Source: a virus
Direction: 5' to 3' (one strand)
Virus record (IMG/VR): IMGVR_UViG_3300043395_002349
Location: 36,090-100,089 of that record
DNA: 64,000 bases
Numbering within the stretch: position 1 is the stretch's first letter; each line of letters begins with the position of its first letter. The position numbers and the translations under genes were made by a program. Positions 12,499 to 58,561 of the stretch are shown here, one piece after another. A model generated the notes under the pieces. It saw nothing but the letters and a program-made list of their open reading frames with translations, had not been told where the DNA came from and made no database searches.

Positions 12499-12530
12499 CA
12501 AATATACAAAAAAAATACCTTAAATAAAAA
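12499..12530 (-). promoter_or_regulatory. Putative Bacteroidota sigma70 -7 element upstream of primase
   Basis: TATATTTG on the minus strand (12499-12506); -33 element imperfect. Confidence 0.5.
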
Positions 12531-14181
12531 AGTTTTCTAGTTTCTTTTCTGTACTTCCCACTAAATTATAAGGTCTAAAATCTTGTACTTCTATAAATGT
12601 TGAATTAAATTGTTCTTTTTCAATTCCCCAACCCTCAATACAACTATAATAACCAAACGGATATTTTTTTGTAATTACTAAATCTAAATATTTTCCATTA
12701 CCAACCCCAATTGTCATCAACACACAACTTTTACCATATCGGTTTAACTTTCTAAAATTTGCTACTAATCCTACAAAATATGTTTGATTACCTTCCGTTT
12801 CAACCCCCATATCAGGTAAGAACTCCTTTTTATCCCACCATCCTGTCTTTGTTAATTGATCGTATATTGTACCACTATTATCGTTTTGTAACTGCACACC
12901 ATTGATTATTGCTTCTCTTTTGTGTACCCACTTTTTATATGATGATTGATTATGTTTAAGTGTTGCTTCCCAAAACTTTTTAGGATTACGTGCTTTATGA
13001 TATGCTAATGCCCAAACCATTTGACCGTATGCTATTGAATGTCCTTTTGCAAACGAATATTTACGAAGATGTGTTAATTCTTCTAATACAGATTTATTAT
13101 TACATCTTTCTTTAAATTCTTTTATTATATCCTGTCTTAAATTTGCAAATCCTCTACGATACCTATCTGCTTCTGAAAGTGTACATCCAACTGCCGATGA
13201 TATAAATGTAAGTGCATCTTCATCATACACAAACATTGCTTTTCCATCTCTAAAATAACTTGCCTTTCTACCACCATCCGCTGCTGCAGGTCTGATAAGT
13301 GCTAATGCTAATGCAACATCGTACATATTCTTTGGTTGGATAGCTAGAATAGTTTTTCTCATTGTTCTACTCTCACTTTGTGTCAACCCTAATACATCAC
13401 CACTACATAATAATTCTGATGTAAGTTTATCATCAAATGGATAATCACATAATTTAGTTTGTGGATCTAATTCTCTTAGTTGTGCTAACCCTCTATTACA
13501 AAGTAAATCAATTTTTATCCAATTGTTATCTTCAACATCGTATTTATCTACTGCTATTTGGTTTTCTTTTAAAATTAAATCTTCAGGTATACCATCTTTC
13601 CAAATTACAATACCACCACAATGTTTACTCCAATTTCGTTGTGTACCCATTAATTCTTCGGCAATCTGATAACACTTTTGTTGTGTTTCTTTGTCACTAA
13701 AAATCTTTTCTACTTTAAAATATTTGGGAACGAACTTGCGATAACCACATTGTCGGATTGCTTCTCTTAATGCAGTTTTTTCAGAATATTTTACTCTGTT
13801 TGAAATACGAGAAACCATATTAGGATATATCTCACCCACATCTGAAAGTATTGTATCTCTTACATCGTATGGTACATCAATATCAAAATCAGGCTGGTCT
13901 TCTCTTGTCCAATTTAAGAATCTTTCTAACGGAATATTTTCTTTTATGGGGTCTATATCGTGAATACCCATATAGTATGCTACCAATGAACTAGCACCAC
14001 TTCCTCTTAATAACCAAAGTGAATTTCTTCGTTTGATAACTTGTACAATATCCCACACTTGTTTATAGGTTTCTACAAATCCCTTTGCCTCAATTATTTC
14101 AAACTCTTCTTTTAACCTTCTAACGTAATCAATGTGTGTTGGATATTCTTTTACAAATCGTTCTATCAACACTTTTGACAT
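12520..14181 (-). CDS. dnaE: DNA polymerase III alpha-like (C-family) catalytic subunit lacking the PHP domain
   Basis: RGSGASS, LERF, PDFDID, KHCGG, KIDLL, ALIRP, YSFAKGHSIAY. Confidence 0.9.
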   Translation of the reverse strand: MSKVLIERFVKEYPTHIDYVRRLKEEFEIIEAKGFVETYKQVWDIVQVIKRRNSLWLLRGSGASSLVAYYMGIHDIDPIKENIPLERFLNWTREDQPDFDIDVPYDVRDTILSDVGEIYPNMVSRISNRVKYSEKTALREAIRQCGYRKFVPKYFKVEKIFSDKETQQKCYQIAEELMGTQRNWSKHCGGIVIWKDGIPEDLILKENQIAVDKYDVEDNNWIKIDLLCNRGLAQLRELDPQTKLCDYPFDDKLTSELLCSGDVLGLTQSESRTMRKTILAIQPKNMYDVALALALIRPAAADGGRKASYFRDGKAMFVYDEDALTFISSAVGCTLSEADRYRRGFANLRQDIIKEFKERCNNKSVLEELTHLRKYSFAKGHSIAYGQMVWALAYHKARNPKKFWEATLKHNQSSYKKWVHKREAIINGVQLQNDNSGTIYDQLTKTGWWDKKEFLPDMGVETEGNQTYFVGLVANFRKLNRYGKSCVLMTIGVGNGKYLDLVITKKYPFGYYSCIEGWGIEKEQFNSTFIEVQDFRPYNLVGSTEKKLENFFI

Positions 14182-33235: not shown

Positions 33236-34945
33236 TTACTTACTTATTAAGTAATTACCTAAAACCAAATAATCCATTTCACAATCGTAAAATGTTTTTA
33301 TTGCAGTTTCAGGATCCAAAACCATAGTTTGACCTCTAAGATTAAATGAGGTATTAAGTAATATAGGATAACCACTTAGTTTTTCAAACTTTTTTAGTAA
33401 CATATAAATAAGTGGGTTAAATGTAGAACGAACTGTCTGAACTCGCGCACTTCCATCAATATGTGTAATAGAAGGTAAACCTGCAATAAAATCATCTTTT
33501 ACTTGAAATACTTGGTTCATATATGGAACTTCTTGTCCACACATATCAAAGTATTTATTTGCATCTTCAAATGAAACCATTGGTGCAAATGGTCTAAACC
33601 CTTCTCTCTTTTTAATTACTCTATTTACCTTTGGTTTAATATTAGGTATAGTTGGATTTGCTAATATAGAACGATTTCCCAAAGCTCTTTGTCCAAATTC
33701 ACTTCCATCTTGAAACCAACCAATTATTGCACCATCGCTGATTAATTCAGCAACTCGTTCTGTTAGTGGATAATAATTAGTGTATCTTTTATATTTGTCC
33801 GATGGTACTAATTTTACAATTGCATTCAAACAATCAACAGTTGAATGTGAAGGTCCTAAAAACGGAGTAGTATTTTCAATTTTCTTAGAATTTATATCTT
33901 TCATCCAACTCCATAAAGCAGCTCCAATTGCACTACCCGCATCAGATGGTGCAGGTGGCACATATACATTTTTATAATTTGTATATTTTGTTATTTTACC
34001 ATTTGCCAACCCATTATAAGCACAACCACCACTTAAACAAAGATTTTCATTTTTACTATGTGTTTGAAAGCTATTTAATAATTTGAAAAATAATCTTTCA
34101 TAATGTGCCTGTAATGAAAATGCAATATCTTTGTGTACTTGTTCTAACTCACTTTCTGGAATACGTGGTGTTATACCAAACAATTCAGCCATTTTTTCAG
34201 TATACATTTCTCTTTCTGAGTAGTGAAATGAAAAATATTTTAAATTAAGTTCAATATGATTGCTATCTGTAATTTTTGCTAATTGTTCAAATTCTTTTTT
34301 AAATTTATCTTTTGAACTACCGTATGCTGCTAATCCCATAACTTTATATTCACCACTATTAGGTTTAAATCCTAAGAATGCGGTGATTGTTGCATAAAGT
34401 AATCCTAACGAATGTGGAAAATAATTTCTTTCTAAAGGTTGTATGTATCTACCTTTTACTCCTAATGCACAAATTGATGTTTCATTTTCACCAACACCAT
34501 CAATTGAAATTAAATCTGCATTATCATACGGAGAAGTATAAAAAGAATATGCTAAATGTGATATATGATGTTCACAATATTGTATAATACCTTTATATCC
34601 TAGTTGTGTTCTTATAATTTTTTCAATATCATTATCTTTCTTCCAATTCCAAAGTTTTTTTGTTAATCTCCATGTTTTTGGAAAATATTTATGATATTGT
34701 TCTTTAAATCTTTCGTATTTCTTTTTTGGATCTTCGTACCAAACAATTTTATCTATTTGGTTTATTTTAATTCTATTTTGTTTTAGAATCCACTTAATTG
34801 AATTTATAGGAAATCTACTATCGTGTTTTATACCTGTGAATCGTTCTTCTTCTTGTGCTGAAACTACTTTTCCATCTATAATAAGTGCAGCGGCTGAATC
34901 GTGATAGTAACCTGAAATTCCTAAAATTTTCATCATTTTCTCCAA
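33236..34945 (-). CDS. O-carbamoyltransferase (NodU/CmcH family)
   Basis: HDSAAA, EERF..KH, HHISH, DGVGE, EYKVMGLAAYG, EFGQRALGNRSILA, KKREGFRPFAP, NTSFN. Confidence 0.95.
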   Translation of the reverse strand: MEKMMKILGISGYYHDSAAALIIDGKVVSAQEEERFTGIKHDSRFPINSIKWILKQNRIKINQIDKIVWYEDPKKKYERFKEQYHKYFPKTWRLTKKLWNWKKDNDIEKIIRTQLGYKGIIQYCEHHISHLAYSFYTSPYDNADLISIDGVGENETSICALGVKGRYIQPLERNYFPHSLGLLYATITAFLGFKPNSGEYKVMGLAAYGSSKDKFKKEFEQLAKITDSNHIELNLKYFSFHYSEREMYTEKMAELFGITPRIPESELEQVHKDIAFSLQAHYERLFFKLLNSFQTHSKNENLCLSGGCAYNGLANGKITKYTNYKNVYVPPAPSDAGSAIGAALWSWMKDINSKKIENTTPFLGPSHSTVDCLNAIVKLVPSDKYKRYTNYYPLTERVAELISDGAIIGWFQDGSEFGQRALGNRSILANPTIPNIKPKVNRVIKKREGFRPFAPMVSFEDANKYFDMCGQEVPYMNQVFQVKDDFIAGLPSITHIDGSARVQTVRSTFNPLIYMLLKKFEKLSGYPILLNTSFNLRGQTMVLDPETAIKTFYDCEMDYLVLGNYLISK

Positions 34946-47786: not shown

Positions 47787-48290
47787 TTAAATTAATTTAT
47801 TTATAGTATTATTTTCTAAATGAAAATGTTGCAAAAACCATATTAATGAATATCTGTTTCCTTTTGTTATTTTAGTGATTTCATGATTTAATTTTACATC
47901 AAAAATATATGTATTACCAATTTCTTTTTTTAAAATAATTTCCGTTTTATCATAGATTTTAAATTCGCCACCATTAAAATCATCATTAAGTAAAACACCA
48001 ACTGAATATATTCTTTTATCTCTTATATCGTTGTGTACTCCAAAATAATCCCCCTCACTATATATGTGAAAATGAATTTGTTTTTTTAATGTTTTTATTT
48101 TTATAGATGTGTTTTGTTCAAAAAAATTTTTTAATTTTTCAAAAATCCAGTTTGTATCATTGTTTACTAAGATTGTGTACGATTTATATTTTCTATCACC
48201 ACTATCCCAATATTGATTATTTTTTTTAACTAAATTAATTATTTTTTGACATTCATCTTTATTAAATAAGATGGTTTGATGTAAATTCAT
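47787..48290 (-). CDS. 2OG-Fe(II) oxygenase
   Basis: HND...LNDDFNGGEF...HEIT...G.RYS. Confidence 0.9.
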   Translation of the reverse strand: MNLHQTILFNKDECQKIINLVKKNNQYWDSGDRKYKSYTILVNNDTNWIFEKLKNFFEQNTSIKIKTLKKQIHFHIYSEGDYFGVHNDIRDKRIYSVGVLLNDDFNGGEFKIYDKTEIILKKEIGNTYIFDVKLNHEITKITKGNRYSLIWFLQHFHLENNTINKLI

Positions 48291-48819
48291 TTTTTATTTC
48301 AATTCTATATTTTTTACCAATTGGAAAAGTTAATTCTTTTAATTCGGGTATATCAACATATTCAATTAATTTGCTTATACCATTTCTATAATACAATTCT
48401 TCATATGAAATAATAAATCCATTTCTTTTTTCATAAAATTTTTTAAATTCTTTTTTTAAATTTTGAAAACTATTTTTTCCTTCTTCATCATAATATTTTT
48501 CTTTGTTTGTCCAAAAACCATGCCAATTTTTTGTTTTCTGTGCATGTAACCAAGATTCTATTTGTAATTCTTCGTTTTCTCGATAAAGATATATTACCTT
48601 TTCTGAAATTTTAAATAGGTTTTCAAAATCCAGTCCTGAATGAAAATCTTCTTTAATTAATAAATGTTTTGTTTTGTATTTGTATGGAAATTCTTTTGTA
48701 TACCATTTTGAATTTATATTTGATGGTAAAAATAAAGTTGTAAAATCTTTATTCATAGAAAACCAAGTTGTTAAATTTGATGAACCGGTTCTAGGTTCTG
48801 CCAATATTAATATTACCAT
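48262..48819 (-). CDS. Sulfotransferase-like protein (Stf0-like)
   Basis: PRTGSS PAPS loop, LYREN...QIESW, ISYEEL. Confidence 0.7.
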   Translation of the reverse strand: MVILILAEPRTGSSNLTTWFSMNKDFTTLFLPSNINSKWYTKEFPYKYKTKHLLIKEDFHSGLDFENLFKISEKVIYLYRENEELQIESWLHAQKTKNWHGFWTNKEKYYDEEGKNSFQNLKKEFKKFYEKRNGFIISYEELYYRNGISKLIEYVDIPELKELTFPIGKKYRIEIKNEFTSNHLI

Positions 48820-49341
48820 TTAAACTAATGTTTTATTTTTTTTTTCTTTTAATACTTTAAATGCTATTGTAATTCGCATATCTATCATTTCTTTTCTAGG
48901 TGCCATACCTCTATGCCAGATATTTCCATTAAAAAATACGGCACTATTTGGTATTGGTATATTACATATCAATTCATTATTGATTTTAAAATATGTTTCA
49001 CCTATTATTGATACATCATTATTTTTTGTAAAATAATACAAAAATGTATGTTCCAATTCATTATTATTATCTTGATGCCACATTCCATCTTGTCCTAATG
49101 TTTGACCATTTGCATATACTCTATCTAATGAATACTCCGTACCAATTATTTGTTGGATTTTGCCAAAAAATTCTTTTGTTATGAATTCAAATTCATTTAA
49201 ATCTGCATACCAAAAAAGAGATTTAGAATATGAGTTTAAACTACTAGATGCACCAAAAATCCACTTTACTTTATTTGATAAAATGTATTTAAGTTTATCG
49301 TATTCATCTTTATTTAAAATATTTTCATATTTTTCAATCAT
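48820..49341 (-). CDS. 2OG-Fe(II) oxygenase
   Basis: YANGQ...HQD...GET.F...HRG...RITIAF. Confidence 0.88.
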   Translation of the reverse strand: MIEKYENILNKDEYDKLKYILSNKVKWIFGASSSLNSYSKSLFWYADLNEFEFITKEFFGKIQQIIGTEYSLDRVYANGQTLGQDGMWHQDNNNELEHTFLYYFTKNNDVSIIGETYFKINNELICNIPIPNSAVFFNGNIWHRGMAPRKEMIDMRITIAFKVLKEKKNKTLV

Positions 49342-49832
49342 AATAATGTTGTTTGCTTTTTATCATTTTTAGTTGTTAATTTAAAAAATGAAACTAATGA
49401 ATATCTATTTCCTTTTTTTACTTTTGTTATTCTATGCCATAATTTATCATCCATAATTAGTGATAAATTTATTTCTGGATTAATTGTTACTTTATTATTA
49501 TTTTGTGAAATATATTCAAAATTACCACCTTCAAAATTTGTATTAAAATATGTAATTATTGTTAAATGTGAATTATCGTAATGAAATGTATCTGCGTTTT
49601 CGTCATTATTAGTTACTTTATTTATCCACATAGGCTGAAGCTCATACCTATCACCAAATGTTTGTTTAACATAATTGCTTATTTTATTTTTAAAATCTAA
49701 TAATTCATCTGTTTTAATTGTTTGTGTATTGTATATTTGAATAAAATCTGCAACAAAATTATTACATAAATTATTTAAGTAATCAATATCTTTATCCGAT
49801 AAGAAACCATATACTTTTATTAAATCAATCAT
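49338..49832 (-). CDS. 2OG-Fe(II) oxygenase
   Basis: HYD...FEGGNF...HRITKV..GNRYS. Confidence 0.88.
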   Translation of the reverse strand: MIDLIKVYGFLSDKDIDYLNNLCNNFVADFIQIYNTQTIKTDELLDFKNKISNYVKQTFGDRYELQPMWINKVTNNDENADTFHYDNSHLTIITYFNTNFEGGNFEYISQNNNKVTINPEINLSLIMDDKLWHRITKVKKGNRYSLVSFFKLTTKNDKKQTTLL

Positions 49833-50431
49833 AATAAACTATTTTCTTTTTTTGAAAATTCAAATCCTACATTTCCTGCTATTACTATTCTATCTAAATT
49901 AGCATTTGGAGCCGGCATTGGTGCATGTAATAAATCAGCCTGCATTATAATTAAATCATCTTCTTCTGGCCTTACCCAATATTCTTTTTTATTCTTACCC
50001 TTTATAAATAATACACCATCATTTTCATTCATAATATCTGGCATTTGAATATAATAAACATAAGTGTAAGTTGGAATAAAACTTTTGTTTTTTTCATTTA
50101 TTTCCGTATGTGAATGATATTTGTCCATAAAAATCCCATTATGAAAATTTAATTGAACAGGATTTTTAGCACTCACAATATTAATCCACTCTTCTGTTTG
50201 TATTGTATTAAATGGGATTTTTATAGTTGATTCGTACAATGCTTTGCACATATCAATTCCCAAATTGCAAATTTTATTTAATAGAATATCTTTTTTTGGA
50301 ATTGAAATAGAATCAAATTTATTTTTTGAATCAATCTTTTTAATTGAATCTATAATTAATTTTTTACTATCTAATAGATTTAATTTTGTTTTCCAAATAT
50401 ATGTTTCCGTGTCAAAGTAAATTTGCTCCAT
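49829..50431 (-). CDS. 2OG-Fe(II) oxygenase-like, HxH type (TIGR02466-like)
   Basis: WIN...HSH...YVYYI...H.P...RIVIAGN; start at ATG 50431 (TAATG coupling). Confidence 0.75.
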   Translation of the reverse strand: MEQIYFDTETYIWKTKLNLLDSKKLIIDSIKKIDSKNKFDSISIPKKDILLNKICNLGIDMCKALYESTIKIPFNTIQTEEWINIVSAKNPVQLNFHNGIFMDKYHSHTEINEKNKSFIPTYTYVYYIQMPDIMNENDGVLFIKGKNKKEYWVRPEEDDLIIMQADLLHAPMPAPNANLDRIVIAGNVGFEFSKKENSLL

Positions 50432-50967
50432 TATAACAAACTTTTTTCTTTTTTGACTGATATCCAATCTACCAATAAATGTATTCTATCTTCATCTCCA
50501 TCATTAATTACACCATGTACTTTTTCCGTATTATTGATTTCCCATAATTCACCTTCTTTTAAATTTTTAGTTTCTATATCCACACTAAAAAAACATTTAT
50601 CGTTTGTAATAATAGGAATGTGTATTCTGTGTGATATTTCAAAACTTTCATGAACATCGGTATGTGTTTTAATTGCTTTGCCTGCTGGTAAATTTATTAA
50701 TAATGCATTGAATAAATAACCATCACCAATTTGTTTTTTAAAAATTTCAGATATTATTTCTAAATCATCTTTAAATAATTCATATTCTTCTCTGTATATA
50801 GCCTTTTTTCTTTCTTCATCAAAAATAATAGGTACTGATTTTGTGTGTATATGAACTCCTTCTGACATTTTTTGTCTGTATTTCCATGACTCCCAATCTA
50901 ATTTAGAAAGCTTTTTCTTTATTTTAGAAACATCTATTTTACCATAATATTTAAAGTTCATATTCAT
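50431..50967 (-). CDS. Aspartyl/asparaginyl beta-hydroxylase-like 2OG oxygenase
   Basis: HTD...RIHIPI.TN...GELWEINN...HGVIN...RIHLLVD. Confidence 0.85.
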   Translation of the reverse strand: MNMNFKYYGKIDVSKIKKKLSKLDWESWKYRQKMSEGVHIHTKSVPIIFDEERKKAIYREEYELFKDDLEIISEIFKKQIGDGYLFNALLINLPAGKAIKTHTDVHESFEISHRIHIPIITNDKCFFSVDIETKNLKEGELWEINNTEKVHGVINDGDEDRIHLLVDWISVKKEKSLL

Positions 50968-51616
50968 ATAGTTTAAAATCGTTTATATACATATCATATA
51001 TTTTTTTACCAAACTGATTTTTAAAGGATTCGTAATTTACTATATTCTTTTCACCCATATTTGGTCTTATATTTTTTAGCTCAACTAACTCTATGTTTAT
51101 ATATTCCGATAATGGTTTTATATCTTTTGTTATTTCTTCAAATTTAAAAATTTTTATTTCTTTTTTTGATTCATTCCACCAATTCTGCTCCCACCAAAAT
51201 CGCAAACCACCCCAATTTTTATTGTGAAATTTTATTTGTTTATAAGTTAATCCACCATAAAATTTTTCATAAAAGTTATCCATATTTGTTTTGGATATAT
51301 TTTTATATGTTTCTACCTTTTCTATCATTTGTTCTAGTGATATATCTTCCCTTCCCATTATTTCTATTTGATGTATATAAGCTGAAATAAATCTATCAAA
51401 TGGATTTCTAACAAATTGTATTACTTTATATTCATCTATATTTTGTATATTATATAAATCAATTATTTCATCTAACGTTAAATGTGTTATTGGGTGTTTT
51501 ACATTTTTTAATGGAGTATTAAATACAACACCAATTTCTTCCAAACTTCTTATAATAGAATTTGATGCTGTTTTTGGTGGTGTTAGTAATATTAATTTGT
51601 GTTTATTAGAAACCAT
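50951..51616 (-). CDS. Sulfotransferase family 2
   Basis: PPKTASNS, VRNPFDRFISAY, YINDF. Confidence 0.85.
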   Translation of the reverse strand: MVSNKHKLILLTPPKTASNSIIRSLEEIGVVFNTPLKNVKHPITHLTLDEIIDLYNIQNIDEYKVIQFVRNPFDRFISAYIHQIEIMGREDISLEQMIEKVETYKNISKTNMDNFYEKFYGGLTYKQIKFHNKNWGGLRFWWEQNWWNESKKEIKIFKFEEITKDIKPLSEYINIELVELKNIRPNMGEKNIVNYESFKNQFGKKIYDMYINDFKLYEYEL

Positions 51617-52134
51617 TATAATAGACTGTTAATATTTTTAATACTTTTTTTGATAAAAATAACTAAAACCTCTCTATTCCCACTTTCAACAGGCGTAACA
51701 CTATGCGTTAAATCTGCATCAAATTCTATCATATTACCAAATTTTAATTCAATGTGTTTTCCATCTAAATAAAAGTTCCCCCCTTCAAATCCATTACTTA
51801 GTATCATTACACATGTCCTTATTGATGAATGAGTATCGGTATGTTCATGTGCACCCTGACCAATTCCATAATTTACATAATGTACATCTGCTATATATTC
51901 TTGTTTTATATCGTACTTTACATATTTTTTAACAATGTCCATCAATTGTTTATTATGTAAATCACACCAAAAATTTTCTGAATAATCAAATAAAAAAGAA
52001 TTATAATAAGTTTTATCGACTCGTTTGTTGAATTTGTTTTCTAAATCATCACCTGAATTTTCATTTCCTATTTTATACACTTTTTTTATTTCTTCAATAT
52101 CATTTTCTTTTATATCGTAAATGTTGTATATCAT
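51616..52134 (-). CDS. 2OG-Fe(II) oxygenase
   Basis: HTD...FEGGNF...HSVTPVESGNR. Confidence 0.9.
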   Translation of the reverse strand: MIYNIYDIKENDIEEIKKVYKIGNENSGDDLENKFNKRVDKTYYNSFLFDYSENFWCDLHNKQLMDIVKKYVKYDIKQEYIADVHYVNYGIGQGAHEHTDTHSSIRTCVMILSNGFEGGNFYLDGKHIELKFGNMIEFDADLTHSVTPVESGNREVLVIFIKKSIKNINSLL

Positions 52135-52137
52135 ATA

Positions 52138-52641
52138 TTACAATAATGTTTTTTGTAATTTAGTATTTTTATTTTCAAAAAAACATACAAAACTAAATCT
52201 GTTACCATTTGTTACTGGTAATACTCTATGCCATACATTATCAGTCATAATTACTGCTGAATTTATTTTTGGTAAATATTTTTTTTGTATTCCATTTTTA
52301 TCAATATATTCCAATTCACCACCATCAAAATTATCATTTAGATATATTACAATTGATACCTCTGCTATATCTTTATGAAAGTTATCATTTTTATTAGTAG
52401 TAGTATTAATATAGTTTATCCATGTTGATTTTGATGGAATTAATATATATTCATCACCCAATTCATTTAGTAATATTGTATTTACACTTTTAATAAATTC
52501 TGGAATTAATTTTTGATTAATTTCTATTCTATTATAGAAGTTATTAAAATTAGGTTTATCTGTTATTACAAAATTGTTGCATTCGTTTTGTAATATTTTC
52601 AGCTCTTCATTATTTAATATGTTATCGACTATTTTTATCAT
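52138..52641 (-). CDS. 2OG-Fe(II) oxygenase
   Basis: HKD...YLNDNFDGGEL...HRVLPV..GNRFS. Confidence 0.9.
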   Translation of the reverse strand: MIKIVDNILNNEELKILQNECNNFVITDKPNFNNFYNRIEINQKLIPEFIKSVNTILLNELGDEYILIPSKSTWINYINTTTNKNDNFHKDIAEVSIVIYLNDNFDGGELEYIDKNGIQKKYLPKINSAVIMTDNVWHRVLPVTNGNRFSFVCFFENKNTKLQKTLL

Positions 52642-53681
52642 AAAAGTTTATTCTTTGTTTCTATAAAGTATTTTTCGACAATATCATTCATATTATGAAT
52701 TGCTTTAAATTTTAAATTAATTTTTTTTAATTCTTTTAAAAATAAATTAAATTCAGGATGATTCTCATCCCAAATTTGTTTTATCATAAATTGACTATCA
52801 CTATATGTTCCCCAATTAGTTATTTTATTAAAAAATACATCAACCTTATTATTAAATATCTTCATCATTAAATTATAAAAATCTTCCATTTGTGTATAGT
52901 TTGTATCTTGAACAACAAATGATACTTTTTTATTTCCTATTTTTATTTTAGATATAAACTCTAAATTTTTTATTAAGGTATTCCAATTTCCACCACGTCT
53001 TATTAATTTATAAGTTTCTTCATTGGCTGCATCTATACTAATTTCTATTGTTTTTATTAAGTTGTGTATGTGTGATAAATCGTTCCAAAGTTTTTCTGTT
53101 AATAATAATCCATTAGTGTGTATGTGTATATTTTTTAAATTTTTAAATTTTGTTTTATCAAAATTTAAAAGTAATTTTCTTATAGATTTAGAGGCAAATG
53201 GGTCGGCTGTGCCTGATAAGTACAATAATGCAATATCTTTTCCAAATTTTTCGGTGATTTTATCTATCATATCATCTATAAAAATGATATCATCTTCATT
53301 TGCCATTATGTTTTCTGTTCTGCAGGATGGGCATGATAGATTACAACTTCTATCAAATGCAAGATTTATGTTGACTGGAGTTTTATAATCTTCTTCTTTG
53401 AAATCCGATTTATTTATAAAACAAGAATGTTTTTTTCCCGTTGTTAATAATTCGGATAAATAAGGACATTTTGTTTTTGAACAATATGAGTATGAACCAT
53501 CTAAAATTGATTCTTTTATTTTTTTATACTCTTCCGTATTCCATGCGTTTTCTATATCTTCTAAAGATGAAAGTTTAACTGGAAGCCAAGACGGGCAACA
53601 GCTATATACAGCGTGCCTATGTGCTTCCATATAAACAAATGGAGTGATGCATACAAATTGTTTTAATATATCGTTATTCAT
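52638..53681 (-). CDS. Radical SAM enzyme with N-terminal SPASM/twitch-like Cys domain
   Basis: CNLSCPSC (CxxxCxxC), TNG, SIDA; N-terminal C..PF...CC...AWN...C....C. Confidence 0.88.
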   Translation of the reverse strand: MNNDILKQFVCITPFVYMEAHRHAVYSCCPSWLPVKLSSLEDIENAWNTEEYKKIKESILDGSYSYCSKTKCPYLSELLTTGKKHSCFINKSDFKEEDYKTPVNINLAFDRSCNLSCPSCRTENIMANEDDIIFIDDMIDKITEKFGKDIALLYLSGTADPFASKSIRKLLLNFDKTKFKNLKNIHIHTNGLLLTEKLWNDLSHIHNLIKTIEISIDAANEETYKLIRRGGNWNTLIKNLEFISKIKIGNKKVSFVVQDTNYTQMEDFYNLMMKIFNNKVDVFFNKITNWGTYSDSQFMIKQIWDENHPEFNLFLKELKKINLKFKAIHNMNDIVEKYFIETKNKLL

Positions 53682-54370
53682 TATAATAATTTATTTTTTA
53701 TAAATGGTTTTTCAAACCGTTCCCAAATAAAATTTTTTAATGTATCATCTATAATTATTTTGTTATTTTCTGGTCTGTTTTTATTTTTTTTATCTAACGA
53801 TTGTTTTATTTTTTTACCATATTTTGTTTCTAAAAAATTATAAAAAGAGTTTATATTTTTTAAATCAAATTCATATGTACAACGTTCCCCATCTTTCCAA
53901 TAGTTTTCAGGTAAAAACATTGAAATATGACCTACAAATTCTAAATTATCTGTTTTTACTAATTCTTTATAAATTGTTTCCCAATTTTTCCATTTTTCTT
54001 TTGTAACAAATCCTGCAATTAATTTATTTGAAAATTGATAATCAAAATGTTTATATATAAAATTATTATCAATATCCTTATATTCTATAATAGTTTCTAA
54101 ATTATGATTATATTGTGTACCATCAAAAAAATATTGTAAAGCACTCATCCATCTATCAAACCAATTTCTTGTAATACAAATCGTTTCTTTAATTCCAAAT
54201 TCATTGTATAGATGTGATTTTCGTATATGAAAATGTTTATCTTCATTTTCTAATAACAAACTTGCTTTTTTTATTTCTAATTCAGAATTTAATAAATCAT
54301 ACTCGATAGTAGTACTTGCACATCTTGGTACGGAAATCCAAATCAAGTCATTGTTTATCAATAATGCCAT
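53681..54370 (-). CDS. Sulfotransferase-like protein
   Basis: VPRCASTT, TRNWFDRWMSA. Confidence 0.7.
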   Translation of the reverse strand: MALLINNDLIWISVPRCASTTIEYDLLNSELEIKKASLLLENEDKHFHIRKSHLYNEFGIKETICITRNWFDRWMSALQYFFDGTQYNHNLETIIEYKDIDNNFIYKHFDYQFSNKLIAGFVTKEKWKNWETIYKELVKTDNLEFVGHISMFLPENYWKDGERCTYEFDLKNINSFYNFLETKYGKKIKQSLDKKNKNRPENNKIIIDDTLKNFIWERFEKPFIKNKLL

Positions 54371-54373
54371 ATA

Positions 54374-54919
54374 CTAATATAAGGATTTTTTTTGAATTTT
54401 CAAAAAAGGCCAACAATTTAATGAATATCTTATACCGTCTGTTATTTCGTTTATTTGGTGTTCTATATTAGAATCAAATATAAAAACACTGCCTATACTT
54501 TTTTCTATTGTATGTTCTATACCATCTATTTTATATACAATATCACCATCTACATAATCATCATTTAATTGAAATATGAATGTTAGTGTTGCACCCAAGT
54601 TCTTTATTGCATGACTATCTGAATGATATTTTAAAAAATCCGTCTTTATATATTTGTTAAATGCAAAATAATCTATTTTTGTGTAAATAGAATTTTTATA
54701 CACATTTAGACCGTTTATAAAATCTAAAATTTTGTTTTCTAAATTTGGGAAATTATTTGGTGGTATAAAAGTTAAATGTCTTTTATTTATTGTATTGTTT
54801 TGTATTGACCCATTTTTACTATACGTTTCCGATTGTTGAAGTTCTAATGAATTTCCAAATAAAATAATTTCCTCACACTCTTTTTGTGTAAGAAAATTTT
54901 TTTTAAATAACGTAAACAT
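54374..54919 (-). CDS. 2OG-Fe(II) oxygenase
   Basis: HSD...QLNDDYVDGD...HQINEITDGIRYS. Confidence 0.88.
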   Translation of the reverse strand: MFTLFKKNFLTQKECEEIILFGNSLELQQSETYSKNGSIQNNTINKRHLTFIPPNNFPNLENKILDFINGLNVYKNSIYTKIDYFAFNKYIKTDFLKYHSDSHAIKNLGATLTFIFQLNDDYVDGDIVYKIDGIEHTIEKSIGSVFIFDSNIEHQINEITDGIRYSLNCWPFLKIQKKSLY

Positions 54920-55221
54920 TATAAAAGTGTTTTAGAACCTTTAGGTTTATCTAATATATCAGTTGCGTTTTCATCTATTTCTTGCCATTTATTTAATTGA
55001 CAAGCATTATATTTACGTGAATATATTTTTTTGTTTAAAGGACAGTTACAATCATTACAATATGAATCATTTTTAAAAAATCTATTAGGTCTAAAATGTT
55101 CACAACCTAAACAAATTTCATATCTTTTTTGTGCTAATTCTAATTGTCCAGGTCGTTTCTTTTCATCATCTGTAAATGAATCATACCAGGACAAAATTAT
55201 TTCCTTAATATCTATACCCAT
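54919..55221 (-). CDS. Small Cys-rich metal-binding protein (DUF6171-like)
   Basis: RYEICLGC...CNDCNCPL..K......C..NKW. Confidence 0.7.
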   Translation of the reverse strand: MGIDIKEIILSWYDSFTDDEKKRPGQLELAQKRYEICLGCEHFRPNRFFKNDSYCNDCNCPLNKKIYSRKYNACQLNKWQEIDENATDILDKPKGSKTLL

Positions 55222-55245
55222 AACTTATTTATTTAACACTAATTA

Positions 55246-55323
55246 TTACGAATTTGCTGTGATAATTAATCCACCAATTTGCGTAAGTATAGTATTCATT
55301 GTATCTTTTTCTGCTGCTGTCAT
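55246..55323 (-). CDS. 25-aa small ORF MTAAEKDTMNTILTQIGGLIITANS
   Basis: Not in the ORF track; fills the gap between two minus-strand genes; A-rich leader before the ATG. Confidence 0.55.
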   Translation of the reverse strand: MTAAEKDTMNTILTQIGGLIITANS

Positions 55324-55341
55324 TTTTTTATTTTTTATAGG

Positions 55342-56844
55342 TTATACACAATAATATTGGCAAATATTTACTGGTGAATTTTTACAACATTGTGCCATCG
55401 GGCAACATCCATTTACATATCCAGGTTGATACGGAGGACATTGTTTTGAATAACAAGCAATATTGTGTTCAATAGTTGCATATGATGTATTTGAATCCGA
55501 ACCTGTTTTTGTTAAGAAATAGTGTGTTCTGGAAACTGTTATATACCAACCATTAAAAAATTCTTTACTAGTAGATATACTTGCAATTTCTTTTAATTCA
55601 TATTGTAGTTCACCATTTGTAGTGTCTACCATTATAATTTTATCACCAACTACCATTTCATGTAAATAAATAAATTTAACATTATTATCTTTTAAACTTA
55701 AATAACTTGAAATACCAGTATCATTCCAATCCGAACCATCTGTAAATGTTAAATTAAATCTACTTGTAAATGTAGATACTTTCACTTTTCCCAATACTTC
55801 ATTTGTTGAATAAGTAGAACCACTTACCAATTGTTCAAAGTTAATATTGAAATTTTCTTGCTCATCAATTGGATTTGTAATTTGTCCATTTGTATCAATA
55901 TCAATTGTTTTTAAAACATCACCAACTTCTAATTCTAATGCAGTTTTAAATGTTCCATCTGCCAATTCCACTAAATCATCATCTTCTAATTTTGGTAGGC
56001 CACCGATTTGATTTTTAGAAACAATATATGACCATTTATTATCTGAACTTATTTCAAATGTACTATTATCGTATACAGGAATTACTGGAACTTCCATTTG
56101 TGTAAATTTAGTATATGCACCTACCTTAATTGATTCTAATGATGGGGGATATAATAAATTTATACTTCTAATTACCTGAATATGGTTTTGATAAAGATTG
56201 CTTTCATTAAAATGATATTCCATTAAAAAATAATCTTTATTTACAAAATTTGCTATTACACTATTTAATTCGTCTTGTGAAGATACCTTAAATAATTTTG
56301 GATATACATTTATATCGTAGAAAGGTAAAACCGCTTTTAATATAAAGTTTGGATTGTTACCATTATCAGGTATAGATGTAATATGATTTACAATAGCATT
56401 AGTTTCATCCATATATGCAAATTGTGAACCAAACTCTGTATCTTTAATTAGATTAAGAAATCCTACTTTATTTTTACAATATTCTTCATCAACAATTGCA
56501 GTTGTATCATATGCACTTCTAATAATAAGAACATCTGCAGAATCTTCTACATATGGAACTGTAATTGAATCTTCACCTACTTTATGATTTTCATATGCAA
56601 CACCTATGTTATTTAATTCGGCCTCTAATACGACACCAAATTCTTTATTTAAATTACCAATGTAATGAACTTTGGTAAAAGAGTTGGATTGAATAAATGC
56701 GATAAGTTCTGCTAAATCAAATATATCGTTTTTATTTTCTAATGTAATATCACCATCTATTCCTAATGCGGTATTTATTTCAACCGGTACTAATTGACCG
56801 GCTTTATTATACATAAAATCTGTACCTAAAAGTATTGTTCTCAT
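55342..56844 (-). CDS. Circularly permuted ATP-grasp + Hint domain + C-terminal 39-aa Cys-rich peptide
   Basis: N-terminal GTDF...G...EINT, later FILKA, LMEY, VIRS; Hint LADG.FK...LEVGD (aa ~285) to YITV..THYF...HN (aa 461); tail C-C-CC-CC-C-C. Confidence 0.8.
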   Translation of the reverse strand: MRTILLGTDFMYNKAGQLVPVEINTALGIDGDITLENKNDIFDLAELIAFIQSNSFTKVHYIGNLNKEFGVVLEAELNNIGVAYENHKVGEDSITVPYVEDSADVLIIRSAYDTTAIVDEEYCKNKVGFLNLIKDTEFGSQFAYMDETNAIVNHITSIPDNGNNPNFILKAVLPFYDINVYPKLFKVSSQDELNSVIANFVNKDYFLMEYHFNESNLYQNHIQVIRSINLLYPPSLESIKVGAYTKFTQMEVPVIPVYDNSTFEISSDNKWSYIVSKNQIGGLPKLEDDDLVELADGTFKTALELEVGDVLKTIDIDTNGQITNPIDEQENFNINFEQLVSGSTYSTNEVLGKVKVSTFTSRFNLTFTDGSDWNDTGISSYLSLKDNNVKFIYLHEMVVGDKIIMVDTTNGELQYELKEIASISTSKEFFNGWYITVSRTHYFLTKTGSDSNTSYATIEHNIACYSKQCPPYQPGYVNGCCPMAQCCKNSPVNICQYYCV

Positions 56845-56863
56845 AATTTGTTTTGTTTACCTC

Positions 56864-56877
56864 TATAAATATAAATA
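56864..56877 (-). promoter_or_regulatory. Tandem putative late-promoter motif TATTTATA
   Basis: TATTTATATTTATA 20 nt upstream of the Hint gene; the same motif precedes the structural genes. Confidence 0.55.
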
Positions 56878-56888
56878 TCTTTAATTAT

Positions 56889-57497
56889 TTATAAAATTGT
56901 TTTTGTTCTTTTTTTATAACTTTTTTCTAAATCTAATATACAATAGTTTCCTGCTAATACTATTCTTTCTTTATCTGAACCTAAATTTATTTCAGGTCTA
57001 TGTGGCAAATCAGCCGAAAAAAATATTAAGGAACCTTCCATTGGTTTTATTTTATGTTCTATTTGAGTATCATCTGTTCTAAATAAAATTCTACCCGAAT
57101 TTTCACCTTCACCTAAATTTGTAGGTAGTTGAATGTAAAAAACCCAAGTATATTGGTTTTCTAAATAAAGTTCATCATTTAAAGTATGAATATGATATCC
57201 CGAATGTTTATTTTTTTCATCACTAATATAACACCAATATTTTAAATGATAAGGGGTATTAAATTCATAACCATATATTTCACAAAATTTTTCCCAAATA
57301 ATATTTTTTAATTTTGATAAAGATTCGGTTTGTATTAATATATCAGATTGTATACCTGGTTCCTTTTCTGTGCCTTTTTCAAATGTCCGTTTACTTACAT
57401 CGACATTAAATTTAATTTCTTTAATAAGTTGTTCTTTATTATATTCAATATCTTTAATGATATTAATTTTATATTTTTCTGAAAGTTGTAATTCCAT
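56889..57497 (-). CDS. 2OG-Fe(II) oxygenase-like, HxH type (TIGR02466-like)
   Basis: HIH...WVFYIQ...GSLIFF...H.P...RIVLAGN. Confidence 0.78.
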   Translation of the reverse strand: MELQLSEKYKINIIKDIEYNKEQLIKEIKFNVDVSKRTFEKGTEKEPGIQSDILIQTESLSKLKNIIWEKFCEIYGYEFNTPYHLKYWCYISDEKNKHSGYHIHTLNDELYLENQYTWVFYIQLPTNLGEGENSGRILFRTDDTQIEHKIKPMEGSLIFFSADLPHRPEINLGSDKERIVLAGNYCILDLEKSYKKRTKTIL

Positions 57498-58022
57498 TTA
57501 AAATACCTTTTTTTCTTTGGTTAAAAAACATTGTAATGAAATTCTTATATCAGCATTTAAATTTATAGTGGTAACACAATGTTTTGTTCCACCTGTTAAA
57601 AATACGCCTGTGTTTTTATCTGGTTTTATTGCCTTTATTTCATCATCTTCTTCATACATAAAATACCCACCCCAATCACTTTCCCATTTTTCATTTAAAT
57701 AAACTGTAAGTGCTCCTTTATATAAACCATCATTGTGCCATGTAATATAACTTAATTTAGGCCAAAAATGTATTTTTAAACCCGTTACAAAAAATGGTAT
57801 TTGTAATTCTATTTCTTTTTTAAGTAGATTAAATATTTCACTATCTTTATCTGAAAAATCATATATTACAACCGGTGTACTACTATTAATTAAATATTCA
57901 TCCCAAAATGCAGTGCTTGTATATAAATTACTATTTTTGTCCGTTTTGATTTTTTTAATATAATCAATTAGTTTAGTATATGTTTCATCCGAAAAAAATG
58001 AATTAAATTTAGTAACACTCAT
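57498..58022 (-). CDS. 2OG-Fe(II) oxygenase
   Basis: WHND...YLNEKW...WGG...HCV...RISLQ. Confidence 0.9.
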   Translation of the reverse strand: MSVTKFNSFFSDETYTKLIDYIKKIKTDKNSNLYTSTAFWDEYLINSSTPVVIYDFSDKDSEIFNLLKKEIELQIPFFVTGLKIHFWPKLSYITWHNDGLYKGALTVYLNEKWESDWGGYFMYEEDDEIKAIKPDKNTGVFLTGGTKHCVTTINLNADIRISLQCFLTKEKKVF

Positions 58023-58561
58023 TAAAATAACGTTTTTTTATTTTTTAATTTATCTTTTTTATACATTAAATAAAGTTGAACAACACTTTCATTTTCACCA
58101 CAAACCAATGTATCTCTCCAATGTTCAAATTTATTAGAATCAATAATAACCAACGCATCACCAACTTTTATATCATATCCAATTTGGTTACCATCAATTA
58201 AAAAATATAAAGGCCATTCCTTATTTGTTTTTTGTAAGCATACTGAAATGGTTATGTTTATTGAATCTTTATCTTTATGTTTTTCTAAATGAGAACCATT
58301 TCTATATTCTCTAATATATGCATTAAAATTTTCAATTCGTATTTCTTTATCGTTTATTATATTTTTAACAACAGGTTTTAATTTTTCTACATATTCATCA
58401 AAAAATTTAACTAATCCAAATCCATAAGAATTTGCACCACTATCTACAATTGGAATATCTAAATCAATATTGTATCTATTTCTTTTTTTTTCTTCGTAAA
58501 ATTTATCTAATAATATTTTACATTCATCTACCGAAACTATGTTTTTTATATATGAAACCAT
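58022..58561 (-). CDS. 2OG-Fe(II) oxygenase-like protein
   Basis: Y.R.Y...L..HKD...ITISVCL...WPL...HWR. Confidence 0.8.
   Translation of the reverse strand: MVSYIKNIVSVDECKILLDKFYEEKKRNRYNIDLDIPIVDSGANSYGFGLVKFFDEYVEKLKPVVKNIINDKEIRIENFNAYIREYRNGSHLEKHKDKDSINITISVCLQKTNKEWPLYFLIDGNQIGYDIKVGDALVIIDSNKFEHWRDTLVCGENESVVQLYLMYKKDKLKNKKTLF

Follow-up and report, generated by a model that had tools for sequence, protein, structure and literature searches.

What does a virus make with a single gene that joins an apparent amide ligase, an intein-like domain and a small cysteine-rich peptide in one polypeptide? Such a gene lies in a stretch of 64,000 nucleotides (the window) from an uncultured large phage (IMG/VR record IMGVR_UViG_3300043395_002349). 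Its product, P0001, is a protein of 500 residues (500 codons and a stop) with three parts: an ATP-grasp ligase (residues 1-284), a Hint domain (285-461) and a tail with eight cysteines (462-500; Table 1). The initial annotation of this DNA had quoted the protein sequence together with its motifs and coordinates, and all of these agree with the translation of 55342-56844 on the minus strand: residue 285 starts at nt 55992, Asn461 extends to nt 55462 and the tail occupies 55461-55345. The composition given there for a Cys-rich tail of 39 residues (8 Cys, 5 Pro, 5 Tyr and 3 Asn) was recovered when residues were counted on the translation. Chance is not a plausible origin for this reading frame, since it is 1.5 kb long in surroundings of 27.9 % GC and has at least 671 full-length homologues (E down to 0). 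The family is represented by 360 clusters in a library of 1.8 billion proteins.

Table 1. Features of the fusion gene and its neighbourhood (positions in the window).
Feature	Position	Strand	Basis
Ligase-Hint-peptide fusion P0001, whole gene	55342..56844	(-)	ORF and translation, homologues, AF2
Circularly permuted ATP-grasp amide-ligase domain (predicted), aa 1-284	55993..56844	(-)	Fold matches, conservation
Hint domain (predicted), aa 285-461; K285 at position 1, H460-N461 terminus	55462..55992	(-)	Foldseek, VIA, conservation
39-aa 8-Cys tail, aa 462-500	55345..55461	(-)	Translation, tail statistics, mass
Conserved micro-gene, 25 aa and stop; amphipathic peptide ending ...IGGLIITANS	55246..55323	(-)	Comparative loci
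Six-Cys zinc-ribbon-like protein P0122, 100 aa; C-terminal tag ...KGSKTLL	54919..55221	(-)	Homologues in loci
Island of tagged enzymes around the fusion gene	47787..58561	(-)	Pfam/PHROG/NCBIfam, co-occurrence, shared tag
2OG-Fe(II) oxygenases (examples)	54374-54919, 56889-57497, 57498-58022, 52138-52641, 51616-52134, 47787-48290	(-)	Family matches
Asp/Asn beta-hydroxylase-like protein	50431-50967	(-)	Island, family matches
Sulfotransferase	50951-51616	(-)	Island, family matches
Twitch/SPASM-like radical SAM protein	52638-53681	(-)	Island, family matches
Island proteins without assignment	53681-54370, 58022-58561, 48262-48819	(-)	

The family is missing from the sequence libraries that were searched. 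P0001 has no match in Pfam at E up to 1 and none in NCBIfam, and PHROGs returned a single 48-residue match to a family of unknown function. Among PDB sequences, searched with P0001 alone and with profiles A2 and A3, the only match was to the Ataxin-1 AXH domain at an E of about 1, covering the first Hint strands. Nothing was returned by tblastn of the fusion protein against 50,697 cultured-phage records or by megablast with the 10 kb around the fusion gene. A non-exhaustive search of 185,579 prokaryote species genomes with two peptide patterns and tblastn found zero relatives. In the collections searched, family members are located solely in viral or metagenomic DNA. The layout of ligase, Hint and cysteine peptide was not found described in any paper.

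The domains were assigned from fold and conservation (Table 1). The AF2 model of the whole protein (pLDDT 85.9, pTM 0.83) places the domains together confidently. Within the ligase part (domain model pLDDT 90.8), the permuted strand order of the ATP-grasp fold is present. Foldseek matched this part to the yeast, human and plant glutathione synthetases, YgiC/YjfC and GspS (E 1e-6, probability 1.0), and 30 or more chains of the permuted glutathione synthetase/GspS branch were found at probability 1.0 with E of 1e-6 to 1e-4. With VIA, the top 11 matches all belong to the glutathione synthetase/GspS/YgiC/Cp1B group (Z 8.2-6.1, residues 1-280), followed in rank by TTLL, ArgX, RimK and LysX (Z 5-6, residues 55-280); classical ATP-grasps align with P0001 only from about residue 55 onward. 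A ligase Z near 8 is modest alone, and the argument lies in the consistency of the VIA list. On these models, residues 1-284 fold as an ATP-grasp that is circularly permuted, of the glutathione synthetase/glutathionylspermidine synthetase kind. The nearest structural relatives of the domain all couple the carboxylate of a peptide or acid to an amine, which favours a similar role for it.

Across 112 representatives (clustered at <=50 % identity), positions conserved at 95 % or more occur only in a ligase set (D9, E22, N24, T25, R109, D119, P165, N166, K170, P182 and R226) and at H460 and N461. All members of the ligase set other than P165 and P182 are putative Mg, ATP or acyl-phosphate residues and are 97-100 % conserved; the roles of D9, E22, N24, K170, R109 and R226 were assigned tentatively through motifs resembling the E-x-N and Lys strands.

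The model of residues 285-461 was matched by Foldseek to Hint structures (E 1e-7, probability 1.0, TM on the target 0.6-0.73). VIA gave Z of 13.6-10.4 and rmsd of 2.5-3.0 A for alignments of 126-148 residues that take in entire intein chains, with Z of 13.6 for BIL2 (6y75), 13.5 for the TvoVMA intein, 12.8 for the Clostridium thermocellum BIL and 12.3 for Hedgehog (1at0). In the VIA register, residue 285 falls on intein residue 1 and residues 459-461 on the intein end. By these comparisons, the segment adopts the Hint (intein) fold. No Hint Pfam model, including PF07591 (Pretoxin-HINT), matches P0001. The sole match of a first Hint to PF07591 comes from a distant relative, P0174, at 21.3 bits, below the cut-off of 27.7; PT-HINT and Intein_splicing matches above threshold come from an extra second Hint that some relatives carry.

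The active-site residues suggest which intein steps could remain. Position 1 (K285) is Lys, invariant in the close family, and among the 112 representatives it is H, L, K, I or S and never Cys; P0001 therefore lacks the Cys, Ser or Thr nucleophile for an N-S or N-O acyl shift. The block-B motif Thr-x-x-His reads T-G-I-S, with Ser in place of His, and the motif alignment has S, T, A or N at this position family-wide. At the other end, the terminal His-Asn is near-invariant (H in 107 and N in 109 of the 112 representatives) and is the best conserved feature of the Hint. The residue after it is Ile462 in P0001, which offers no Cys, Ser or Thr nucleophile, and V, G, L, A, Y, F, T, I, S and others among 120 relatives, with nucleophiles not favoured. 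The block-F Asp position is Thr in P0001 and the F-block His and Asp are only partly conserved in the family, so cleavage by this Hint could be slow or regulated. K285, E459 and N461 are all invariant in the close family, and an intramolecular Lys285-Asn461 isopeptide catalysed by Glu459 was considered; it was dropped because K285 and E459 are not conserved superfamily-wide.

The initial annotation had thus read the domains correctly. Its permuted ATP-grasp is upheld by Foldseek and VIA, which also speak for the Hint fold that it had proposed for residues 285-461, and the Lys at the Cys1 position, the missing block-B His and the conservation of His-Asn in homologues are borne out by the alignments. 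Its expectation that ATP-grasp and Hint are conserved before a variable but Cys-rich tail holds across the homologues.

The tail of P0001 has the framework C-C-CC-CC-C-C, a calculated reduced mass of 4341 Da and Lys at tail positions 6 and 27, of which the Lys at position 6 is the one retained in the nearest relatives. In relatives the tails are 23-97 residues long. Cysteine makes up 19 % of the tail and 0.6 % of the body. Of 120 tails, 118 contain 8, 6 or 10 Cys. The cysteines begin 2-5 residues past the Asn and, in most tails, stop 0-3 residues short of the C-terminus. Lysine is found in all 121 tails, exactly once in 81 of them, whereas about a quarter of tails would be expected to lack it at the observed Lys frequency of 3.5 %. 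Cluster representatives give the same picture (Lys in 69/69 tails, an even number of Cys in 68/69). Relatives at 94 % and 71 % identity differ at 2 and 10 of the 39 tail positions; among such close relatives the tail does not change faster than the body, and diversifying selection at short range is unsupported.

The module of residues 1-460 is not restricted to short cargoes. In relatives it also precedes tails of 100-1240 residues, placed directly after the His-Asn; some of these contain BACON domains, and the long BACON-type tails also have a Lys soon after the His-Asn (C-x3-[PI]-K-S). That the same module carries such differing cargoes at the same junction argues that it is a release device. 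Some relatives have a second, fully canonical Hint after the Cys core. Excision of the peptide at both ends might seem proven by this, but the idea was dropped, since the obligatory lysine lies downstream of the second Hint and in some of these proteins the Hints are just 2-7 residues apart. The two-Hint relatives are explained at least as well by the insertion of a BIL-like element that removes itself. A scan with one distant two-Hint relative (P0260) returned a Hint match only.

Two small genes accompany the fusion gene. The micro-gene follows 12-58 nt past it in essentially every related locus and encodes 24-30 residues with the consensus ..N.(L/M)T.IG.LI(V/I).ANS-COOH; its variation is highest at the third codon position (0.35 vs 0.21 and 0.17). 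A homologue of P0122 is found in 77 of 80 related loci, adjoining the fusion gene or at most three genes away. Its C40, C55, C58, C60, C74, W12 and W79 are invariant and C37 is near-invariant. P0122 matches PHROG 13558 (unknown function), with DUF6171 as a lead only, and tblastn with P0122 against the 50,697 cultured-phage records found nothing.

The enzymes of the surrounding island share a C-terminal tag, K-x-K-[ST]-L-[LI], that is conserved across loci; P0001 itself has no such tag. The tagged 2OG oxygenase family occurs in 63 of 79 independently fetched fusion-gene loci, the remaining 16 being short loci or loci truncated near the fusion gene on one side. A scan for the neighbouring 2OG oxygenase succeeded when based on an alignment and found nothing with the single protein. 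Is the tail the substrate of this island? In a crude test, the Pro content of tails was not correlated with the number of nearby prolyl-hydroxylase-like genes (rho 0.17, p 0.25), and near-identical tails are accompanied by different enzyme sets. Both results disfavour a simple tail-as-substrate reading.

Taken together, P0001 is on balance probably a self-processing precursor, in which the Hint frees the peptide and the ligase forms an amide involving the tail lysine, and the precursor gene is probably confined to large tailed phages. Asn cyclisation can be separated from the N-terminal steps of splicing and then frees the C-extein, and A-type BIL domains retain His-Asn and cleave C-terminally (PMC7765530). 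C-terminally placed HINT domains have been interpreted as releasing the toxin domains of polymorphic toxins (PMC3482391). On the model of uncoupled intein C-terminal cleavage and of A-type BIL domains, Asn461 of P0001 would cyclise to a succinimide and break the Asn461-Ile462 bond, which would free a 39-residue peptide (4.34 kDa) bearing a new alpha-amine. The ligase would activate a carboxylate as an acyl-phosphate and couple it to an amine of the tail, most likely the obligatory Lys, with the new N-terminus as an alternative. Candidate acyl donors are the ...A-N-S C-terminus of the micro-protein, the tail's own C-terminus (giving a lactam) or a small acid. As P0001 has no signal peptide, disulfides cannot form where it is made; four Cys pairs could form them after the peptide leaves the reducing cytoplasm, for instance at lysis. 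The pLDDT of the tail is below 50, so that no fold or disulfide map supports this part of the model. Tagged enzymes of the island (oxygenases, sulfotransferase and radical SAM enzyme) may further modify the peptide.

The universal lysine also admits a different reading, which is unlikely but has several observations on its side. P0001 could be a conjugation device whose ligase links the lysine of the cargo to a partner protein through the C-terminal carboxylate of that partner (the A-N-S micro-protein, the K-x-K-T-L-L island enzymes or a virion protein), after which the Hint frees the cargo. Each molecule would act once, and its Cys-rich peptide, or the BACON-domain array in relatives, would end up as a module attached covalently to the partner. 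Every tail has a lysine, and often just one; the long BACON-type tails also show a lysine shortly past the His-Asn, and the ligase relatives GspS, glutathione synthetase, RimK, TTL/TTLL and LysX/ArgX use C-terminal carboxylates of peptides or proteins. Two kinds of neighbour, the micro-protein and the tagged enzymes, have strikingly conserved C-termini, and the tagged 2OG oxygenase is tightly linked to a fusion gene that lacks the tag. Cargoes of such different size and kind also suit attachment better than a single peptide drug. However, no precedent is known for a ligase that is tied to its acceptor by a Hint domain, and it is not obvious why a dozen different tagged enzymes would compete for one lysine. 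An improbable elaboration of this scheme would be a ubiquitin/Pup-like system in the reverse sense: a single-use ATP-grasp ligase would bring along its own modifier, a tail that bears a lysine and can be released by the Hint, would couple this lysine to the A-N-S micro-protein and/or to the dozen K-x-K-T-L-L enzymes, and would then cut itself free by Asn cyclisation.

Cleavage might also not occur at all. The tail would then stay permanently on a cytoplasmic ligase as a small subdomain that binds metal (Zn or Fe-S) or is stapled by disulfides, with the Hint as an inert structural spacer that retains His-Asn for folding. Eight Cys could bind two Zn ions, metal sites are more likely than disulfides in a cytoplasmic protein, the block-F residues with a helping role in Asn cyclisation have degenerated in the P0001 clade, and the confident joint placement of the domains by AF2 would suit a permanent assembly. 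This reading is nevertheless very unlikely. Many tails have 6 or 10 Cys (23/120 and 12/120), numbers that do not fit four-Cys sites, and there are many Cys frameworks, with spacing conserved just within subfamilies. The His-Asn at the exact Hint terminus is best conserved while the remaining Hint drifts, and unrelated cargoes of up to 1240 residues on the same module form the pattern of a release module. Equally doubtful is a polymorphic effector with a diversifying mini-protein as its tail, toxin-like or receptor-blocking and acting after lysis on competitors, grazers or the host envelope, with the ligase fused only for co-expression and doing a separate small-molecule job (e.g., a thiol/polyamine conjugate): polymorphic toxins have the same order of conserved N-terminal part, Hint and variable C-terminal cassette (PMC3482391), sister viral clusters are annotated PT-HINT in Atlas and the Cys frameworks resemble those of disulfide-rich toxins, but there is no secretion or trafficking domain, conserved partner genes stand where an immunity-like gene varying with the tail would be expected, in close relatives the pace of change in the tail does not exceed that in the body and the universal tail lysine is left without explanation.

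The putatively self-cleaving combination of ligase, Hint and peptide may be a new viral way to make, release or attach small peptides. If the proposed chemistry is true, small disulfide-rich peptides would be produced naturally without a protease, from a precursor equipped with an amide ligase and with a cleavage-only Hint as its built-in release device. Cargo release by Hint domains, known from bacterial toxins, would then also operate in viruses, and part of the dioxygenase islands of large phages, a long-standing puzzle, would gain a function. For peptide engineering, the fusion could serve as a compact ligase module that cleaves itself. Hundreds of lineages make the family abundant in large aquatic phages, and it is missing from the cultured-phage records and family libraries searched, so that a widespread element of environmental virus biology lacks an explanation.

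How does P0001 compare with known systems? Its permuted ATP-grasp is shared with glutathionylspermidine synthetase (2io7), Escherichia coli YgiC/YjfC (7uka/7uk6), eukaryotic glutathione synthetase (1m0t/2hgs) and Cp1B (9cjn), the ligase of E-64 biosynthesis, in which the metal-binding E-x-N strand is N-terminal as in P0001. In all of these enzymes, the carboxylate of a peptide or acid is activated as an acyl-phosphate and joined to an amine. P0001 differs from them in sequence (identity 9-16 %, no sequence-profile match), in the length of the ligase domain (284 residues vs 370-600) and in the fused Hint and peptide. Borosins carry the modifying enzyme and the core peptide in a single polypeptide. 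P0001 resembles them in the fusion of an enzyme to a putative core peptide, and, on the preferred reading, it resembles graspetides and microviridins in having an ATP-grasp ligase act on a ribosomal peptide with tailoring-type enzymes near. Release in borosins and graspetides is by an external protease, whereas in P0001 it would be by the built-in Hint. Graspetide ligases are classical, non-permuted ATP-grasps (Z of P0001 to 7mgv only 4.0) and need Asp or Glu side chains in the core, which are cross-linked to Ser, Thr or Lys, whereas 31 of 121 tails in the P0001 family have neither.

The island resembles the tandem 2OG-Fe(II) dioxygenase arrays of T4-like cyanophages, as in the gp49-gp54 region of Syn9, which have been interpreted as clusters for the modification of peptides or secondary metabolites (Iyer et al., 2010, PMC2938197). 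Both combine diverse dioxygenases, accompanied here and there by radical SAM enzymes and sulfotransferases. The account of the cyanophage arrays mentions neither a ligase-Hint-peptide gene nor a micro-gene, and no C-terminal tag common to the enzymes (PMC2938197). The island oxygenases are 28-37 % identical to the cyanophage ones in alignments that end before the tag. The closest parallel for the Hint lies in the Pretoxin-HINT (PF07591) modules of bacterial polymorphic toxins and in A-type BIL domains (C. thermocellum BIL, 2lwy; Tetrahymena BIL2, 6y75). These share its fold (Z 12.8-13.6), its position directly before a variable C-terminal cargo, its conserved His-Asn without a +1 nucleophile and its expected chemistry, C-terminal cleavage by Asn cyclisation (PMC7765530, PMC3482391). 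BILs have Cys or Ser at position 1; with Lys there (H, L, K, I or S in the family), the Hint of P0001 cannot form the thioester. Its upstream partner is an ATP-grasp ligase in place of the secretion or filament domain of Pretoxin-HINT and BIL proteins, and its cargo is a Cys/Lys peptide of 23-97 residues where that of Pretoxin-HINT is an enzyme toxin.

The 500-residue protein described in the initial annotation is the exact translation of a minus-strand open reading frame, here called the fusion gene. The quoted motifs hold on this translation, as do the nucleotide limits of the three parts: a ligase domain (residues 1-284), a Hint domain (285-461) and a tail (462-500) in which 8 Cys, 5 Pro, 5 Tyr and 3 Asn are indeed found among 39 residues. 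The window has a G+C content of 27.9 %, and its baseplate, SbcC-like and DNA-polymerase genes are those of a large tailed phage; the source IMG/VR record is 100 kb long with an estimated completeness of about half. The fusion protein had no match in Pfam, NCBIfam or PDB sequences. No relative was found among 50,697 cultured-phage records or, by a pattern-based scan, in 185,579 prokaryote species genomes. Metagenomic collections contain at least 671 full-length homologues of ~490-510 residues, and the family forms 360 cluster representatives in a library of 1.8 billion proteins. Look-alike clusters in the Atlas are 96-100 % viral.

Features of the fusion-gene region and of the wider window
Feature	Position	Strand	Remarks
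Fusion gene	55342-56844	-	500 aa
Micro-gene	55246-55323	-	25 codons, in the gap after the fusion gene
Six-Cys zinc-ribbon-like gene	54919-55221	-	100 aa; C-x2-C ... C-x2-C-x-C-P ... C-P
Terminator-like hairpin	54866-54898	-	13 pairs, T-rich tail; just past the zinc-ribbon-like gene stop, inside the first part of the oxygenase ORF that follows
Tagged island	47787-58561		C-terminus of nearly all proteins, despite unrelated folds: a basic stretch + [ST/N/K]-L-[LI/V/F]; homologues likewise, in dozens of other phage contigs
185-aa protein	48262-48819		
Nol-like carbamoyltransferase	33236-34945	-	PHROG 1601, E 6e-123
553-aa protein	12520-14181	-	Matches phage DNA-polymerase PHROGs in their central part only (phrog_405, positions 360-830 of 1190)

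For residues 1-284, modelled separately (pLDDT 90.8), the Foldseek matches (probability 1.0, E 1e-6 to 1e-4) were the glutathione synthetases of eukaryotes, YgiC/YjfC of E. coli, and glutathionylspermidine/trypanothione synthetases. In a second, independent all-against-representatives search, the top 11 rows comprised the same group and the E-64 ligase Cp1B (Z 8.2-6.1, residues 1-280). Next in rank were classical ATP-grasps with protein C-termini as substrates (TTLL, ArgX, RimK, LysX and TTL); these aligned only from residue ~55 on, which is the pattern predicted by circular permutation. The permuted motif order proposed earlier is thus borne out, with the putative Mg-binding D...E-x-N strands at the N-terminus. 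The model predicts that residues 1-284 are a circularly permuted ATP-grasp; a Z near 8 is modest, and the argument is the consistency of the match list together with residue conservation.

The whole-protein AlphaFold2 model, built from 121 sequences, has a pLDDT of 85.9 and a pTM of 0.83, with pLDDT below 50 in the tail only. Its Hint region was matched best by inteins, Tetrahymena BIL2, a Clostridium BIL and the Hedgehog autoprocessing domain (Foldseek E 1e-7, probability 1.0), and VIA-align returned Z 13.6-10.4 at an rmsd of 2.5-3.0 Å over 126-148 residues, in agreement with the Hint fold first proposed. In the alignment, model residue 285 falls on intein residue 1 and residues 459-461 fall on the end of the intein. 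This register places Lys285 at the position of the catalytic Cys1 and His460-Asn461 at that of the terminal His-Asn, both as the initial annotation had read them. Motif alignment likewise shows block B without its His, Thr-x-x-His being replaced by T-G-I-S.

Conservation was assessed in an alignment of 112 representatives, one per 50 %-identity cluster. Eleven ligase residues (D9, E22, N24, T25, R109, D119, P165, N166, K170, P182 and R226) are conserved at 95 % or more, and in the Hint domain only H460 and N461 reach this level. At Hint position 1 the family has H, L, K, I or S, in no case Cys. S/T/A/N take the place of the block-B His, and block F has D or H as its polar residue. By this conservation, the family has retained a ligase that appears catalytically equipped and, in the Hint domain, just the two residues of Asn cyclisation, and everything for the N-terminal acyl shift is missing. 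It is established that Asn cyclisation can run uncoupled and liberate the C-extein, and that A-type BIL domains that retain His-Asn cleave C-terminally (PMC7765530).

The tail was characterized in 121 close homologues. It extends 23-97 residues past His-Asn (median 39) and contains 19 % Cys vs 0.6 % in the body, as expected of a variable, Cys-rich cargo behind a conserved ATP-grasp and Hint. Eight Cys are present in 83 tails, six in 23 and ten in 12; odd numbers are confined to two tails. The first Cys lies 2-5 residues past the Asn, the last is 0-3 residues from the C-terminus in most tails, and 15 different amino acids occur directly after the Asn. From the frequency of Lys, some 25 % of tails would be expected to lack this residue, yet all 121 have at least one; 81 have exactly one, usually within C-[PG]-K. 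In the clade of the window, the homologue alignment places the conserved Lys at tail position 6 (C-x-S-K-x-C). Short tails of the wider superfamily follow the same rules, with an even Cys number in 68/69 and Lys in 69/69. Counts of 6, 8 and 10 Cys are easier to reconcile with disulfide pairs than with four-Cys metal sites. Among close relatives the tail changes no faster than the body. From these comparisons, the tail appears weakly constrained outside its Cys and Lys, and diversifying selection is not demonstrable.

The gene neighbourhood was sampled in 80 related viral loci. In essentially every one, a micro-gene of 24-30 codons lies 12-58 nt downstream of the fusion gene. Its third codon positions are the most variable, as in real coding sequence, and its product (consensus ..N.(L/M)T.IG.LI(V/I).ANS-COOH) always ends in L-I-[VI]-x-x-N-S. 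A zinc-ribbon-like protein of 90-105 residues with six conserved Cys is present in 77/80 loci; it has no named family, with an Atlas lead to DUF6171 only. Two terminator-like sites, one of them the hairpin past this gene, occur in 2.3 kb vs 0.5 expected. The surrounding gene set is variable and includes 2OG-Fe(II) oxygenases (prolyl-hydroxylase-like and Asp/Asn-hydroxylase-like), a sulfotransferase, a twitch/SPASM-like radical SAM protein (43/80 loci) and several unknowns. Homologues of the 185-aa protein and the radical SAM gene tend to stand in for one another, and near-identical tails occur with either (loci L001/L003 vs L004). In many related phages the fusion gene is preceded, at a distance of a few genes, by a carbamoyltransferase homologue, with conserved ORFs of ~145, 128 and 71 aa after this homologue; in the window the carbamoyltransferase gene is 20 kb away.

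A common C-terminal tag, K-x-K-[ST/N]-L-[LI], marks unrelated island proteins and is conserved across loci in 47/48, 52/52 and 69/71 members of three families. In the window the sulfotransferase is the exception (YEYEL). The fusion protein lacks the tag, as do the flanking genes that were checked, where no more than one member each had it and one family gave loose chance matches. The tag looks like a motif for docking to, or recognition by, a common partner. When the search was started in reverse from one tagged oxygenase family, the fusion gene was present in 63/79 newly fetched loci, and the other 16 were short or cut near the gene on one side; island and fusion gene thus form one unit. Contig IMGVR_UViG_3300042892_005961 (211 kb) carries two fusion-gene copies ~38 kb apart (L009 and L063), which differ in tail type (8-Cys vs 6-Cys) and in their neighbour enzymes.

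Given the folds, the conservation, the tail rules and the genomic linkage, the best-supported reading is that the fusion protein is a self-processing precursor that would cleave itself and use ATP for ligation. Cyclisation of Asn461 would break the Asn461-Ile462 bond and release a 4341-Da peptide with a free alpha-amine. The ligase would form an amide bond at a peptide amine, most likely that of the obligatory Lys, and the Cys pairs would oxidise after the peptide leaves the cytoplasm. The ligation would call for an acyl donor, and island enzymes may decorate the peptide. Two crude checks gave no support for action of the island enzymes on the tail: tail Pro content was not correlated with how many prolyl-hydroxylase-like genes are present, and near-identical tails were found with different enzyme sets. 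The chief alternative is a conjugation device: before the Hint domain frees the product, the tail Lys would be coupled to the conserved C-terminal carboxyl group of the micro-protein (A-N-S) or of the island enzymes (T-L-L tag).

The same module carries other cargoes. Some family members have tails of 100-1240 residues, with BACON domains in three of the four longest tails scanned; five members among those with the longest tails (1129-1667 aa) again have C-x3-[PI]-K-S a few residues past His-Asn. In others, a second Hint comes after the Cys core; it is fully canonical (Cys1, T-x-x-H, and terminal His-Asn then Lys-Lys) and scores above Pfam thresholds for Intein_splicing or PT-HINT. Excision of a peptide at both ends was set aside for these members because the obligatory Lys is placed after the second Hint and the inter-Hint gap is just 2-7 residues in some; a self-removing BIL-like insertion accounts for them at least as well, and they are therefore not strong evidence for excision.

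How do these phage proteins compare with known systems? Full-text literature searches found no description of ATP-grasp + Hint in phages or of Hint domains in RiPP precursors, and the fusion gene is not mentioned in the jumbo-phage survey or in the paper on cyanophage dioxygenase islands (Iyer et al., 2010; PMC2938197). Conjugation of the tail, if true, would be categorically new. The superfamily of each part is already known, as is the principle of Hint-mediated release of C-terminal cargo; in polymorphic toxins, a Hint domain directly before a variable C-terminal cargo has been read as a release device (PMC3482391).
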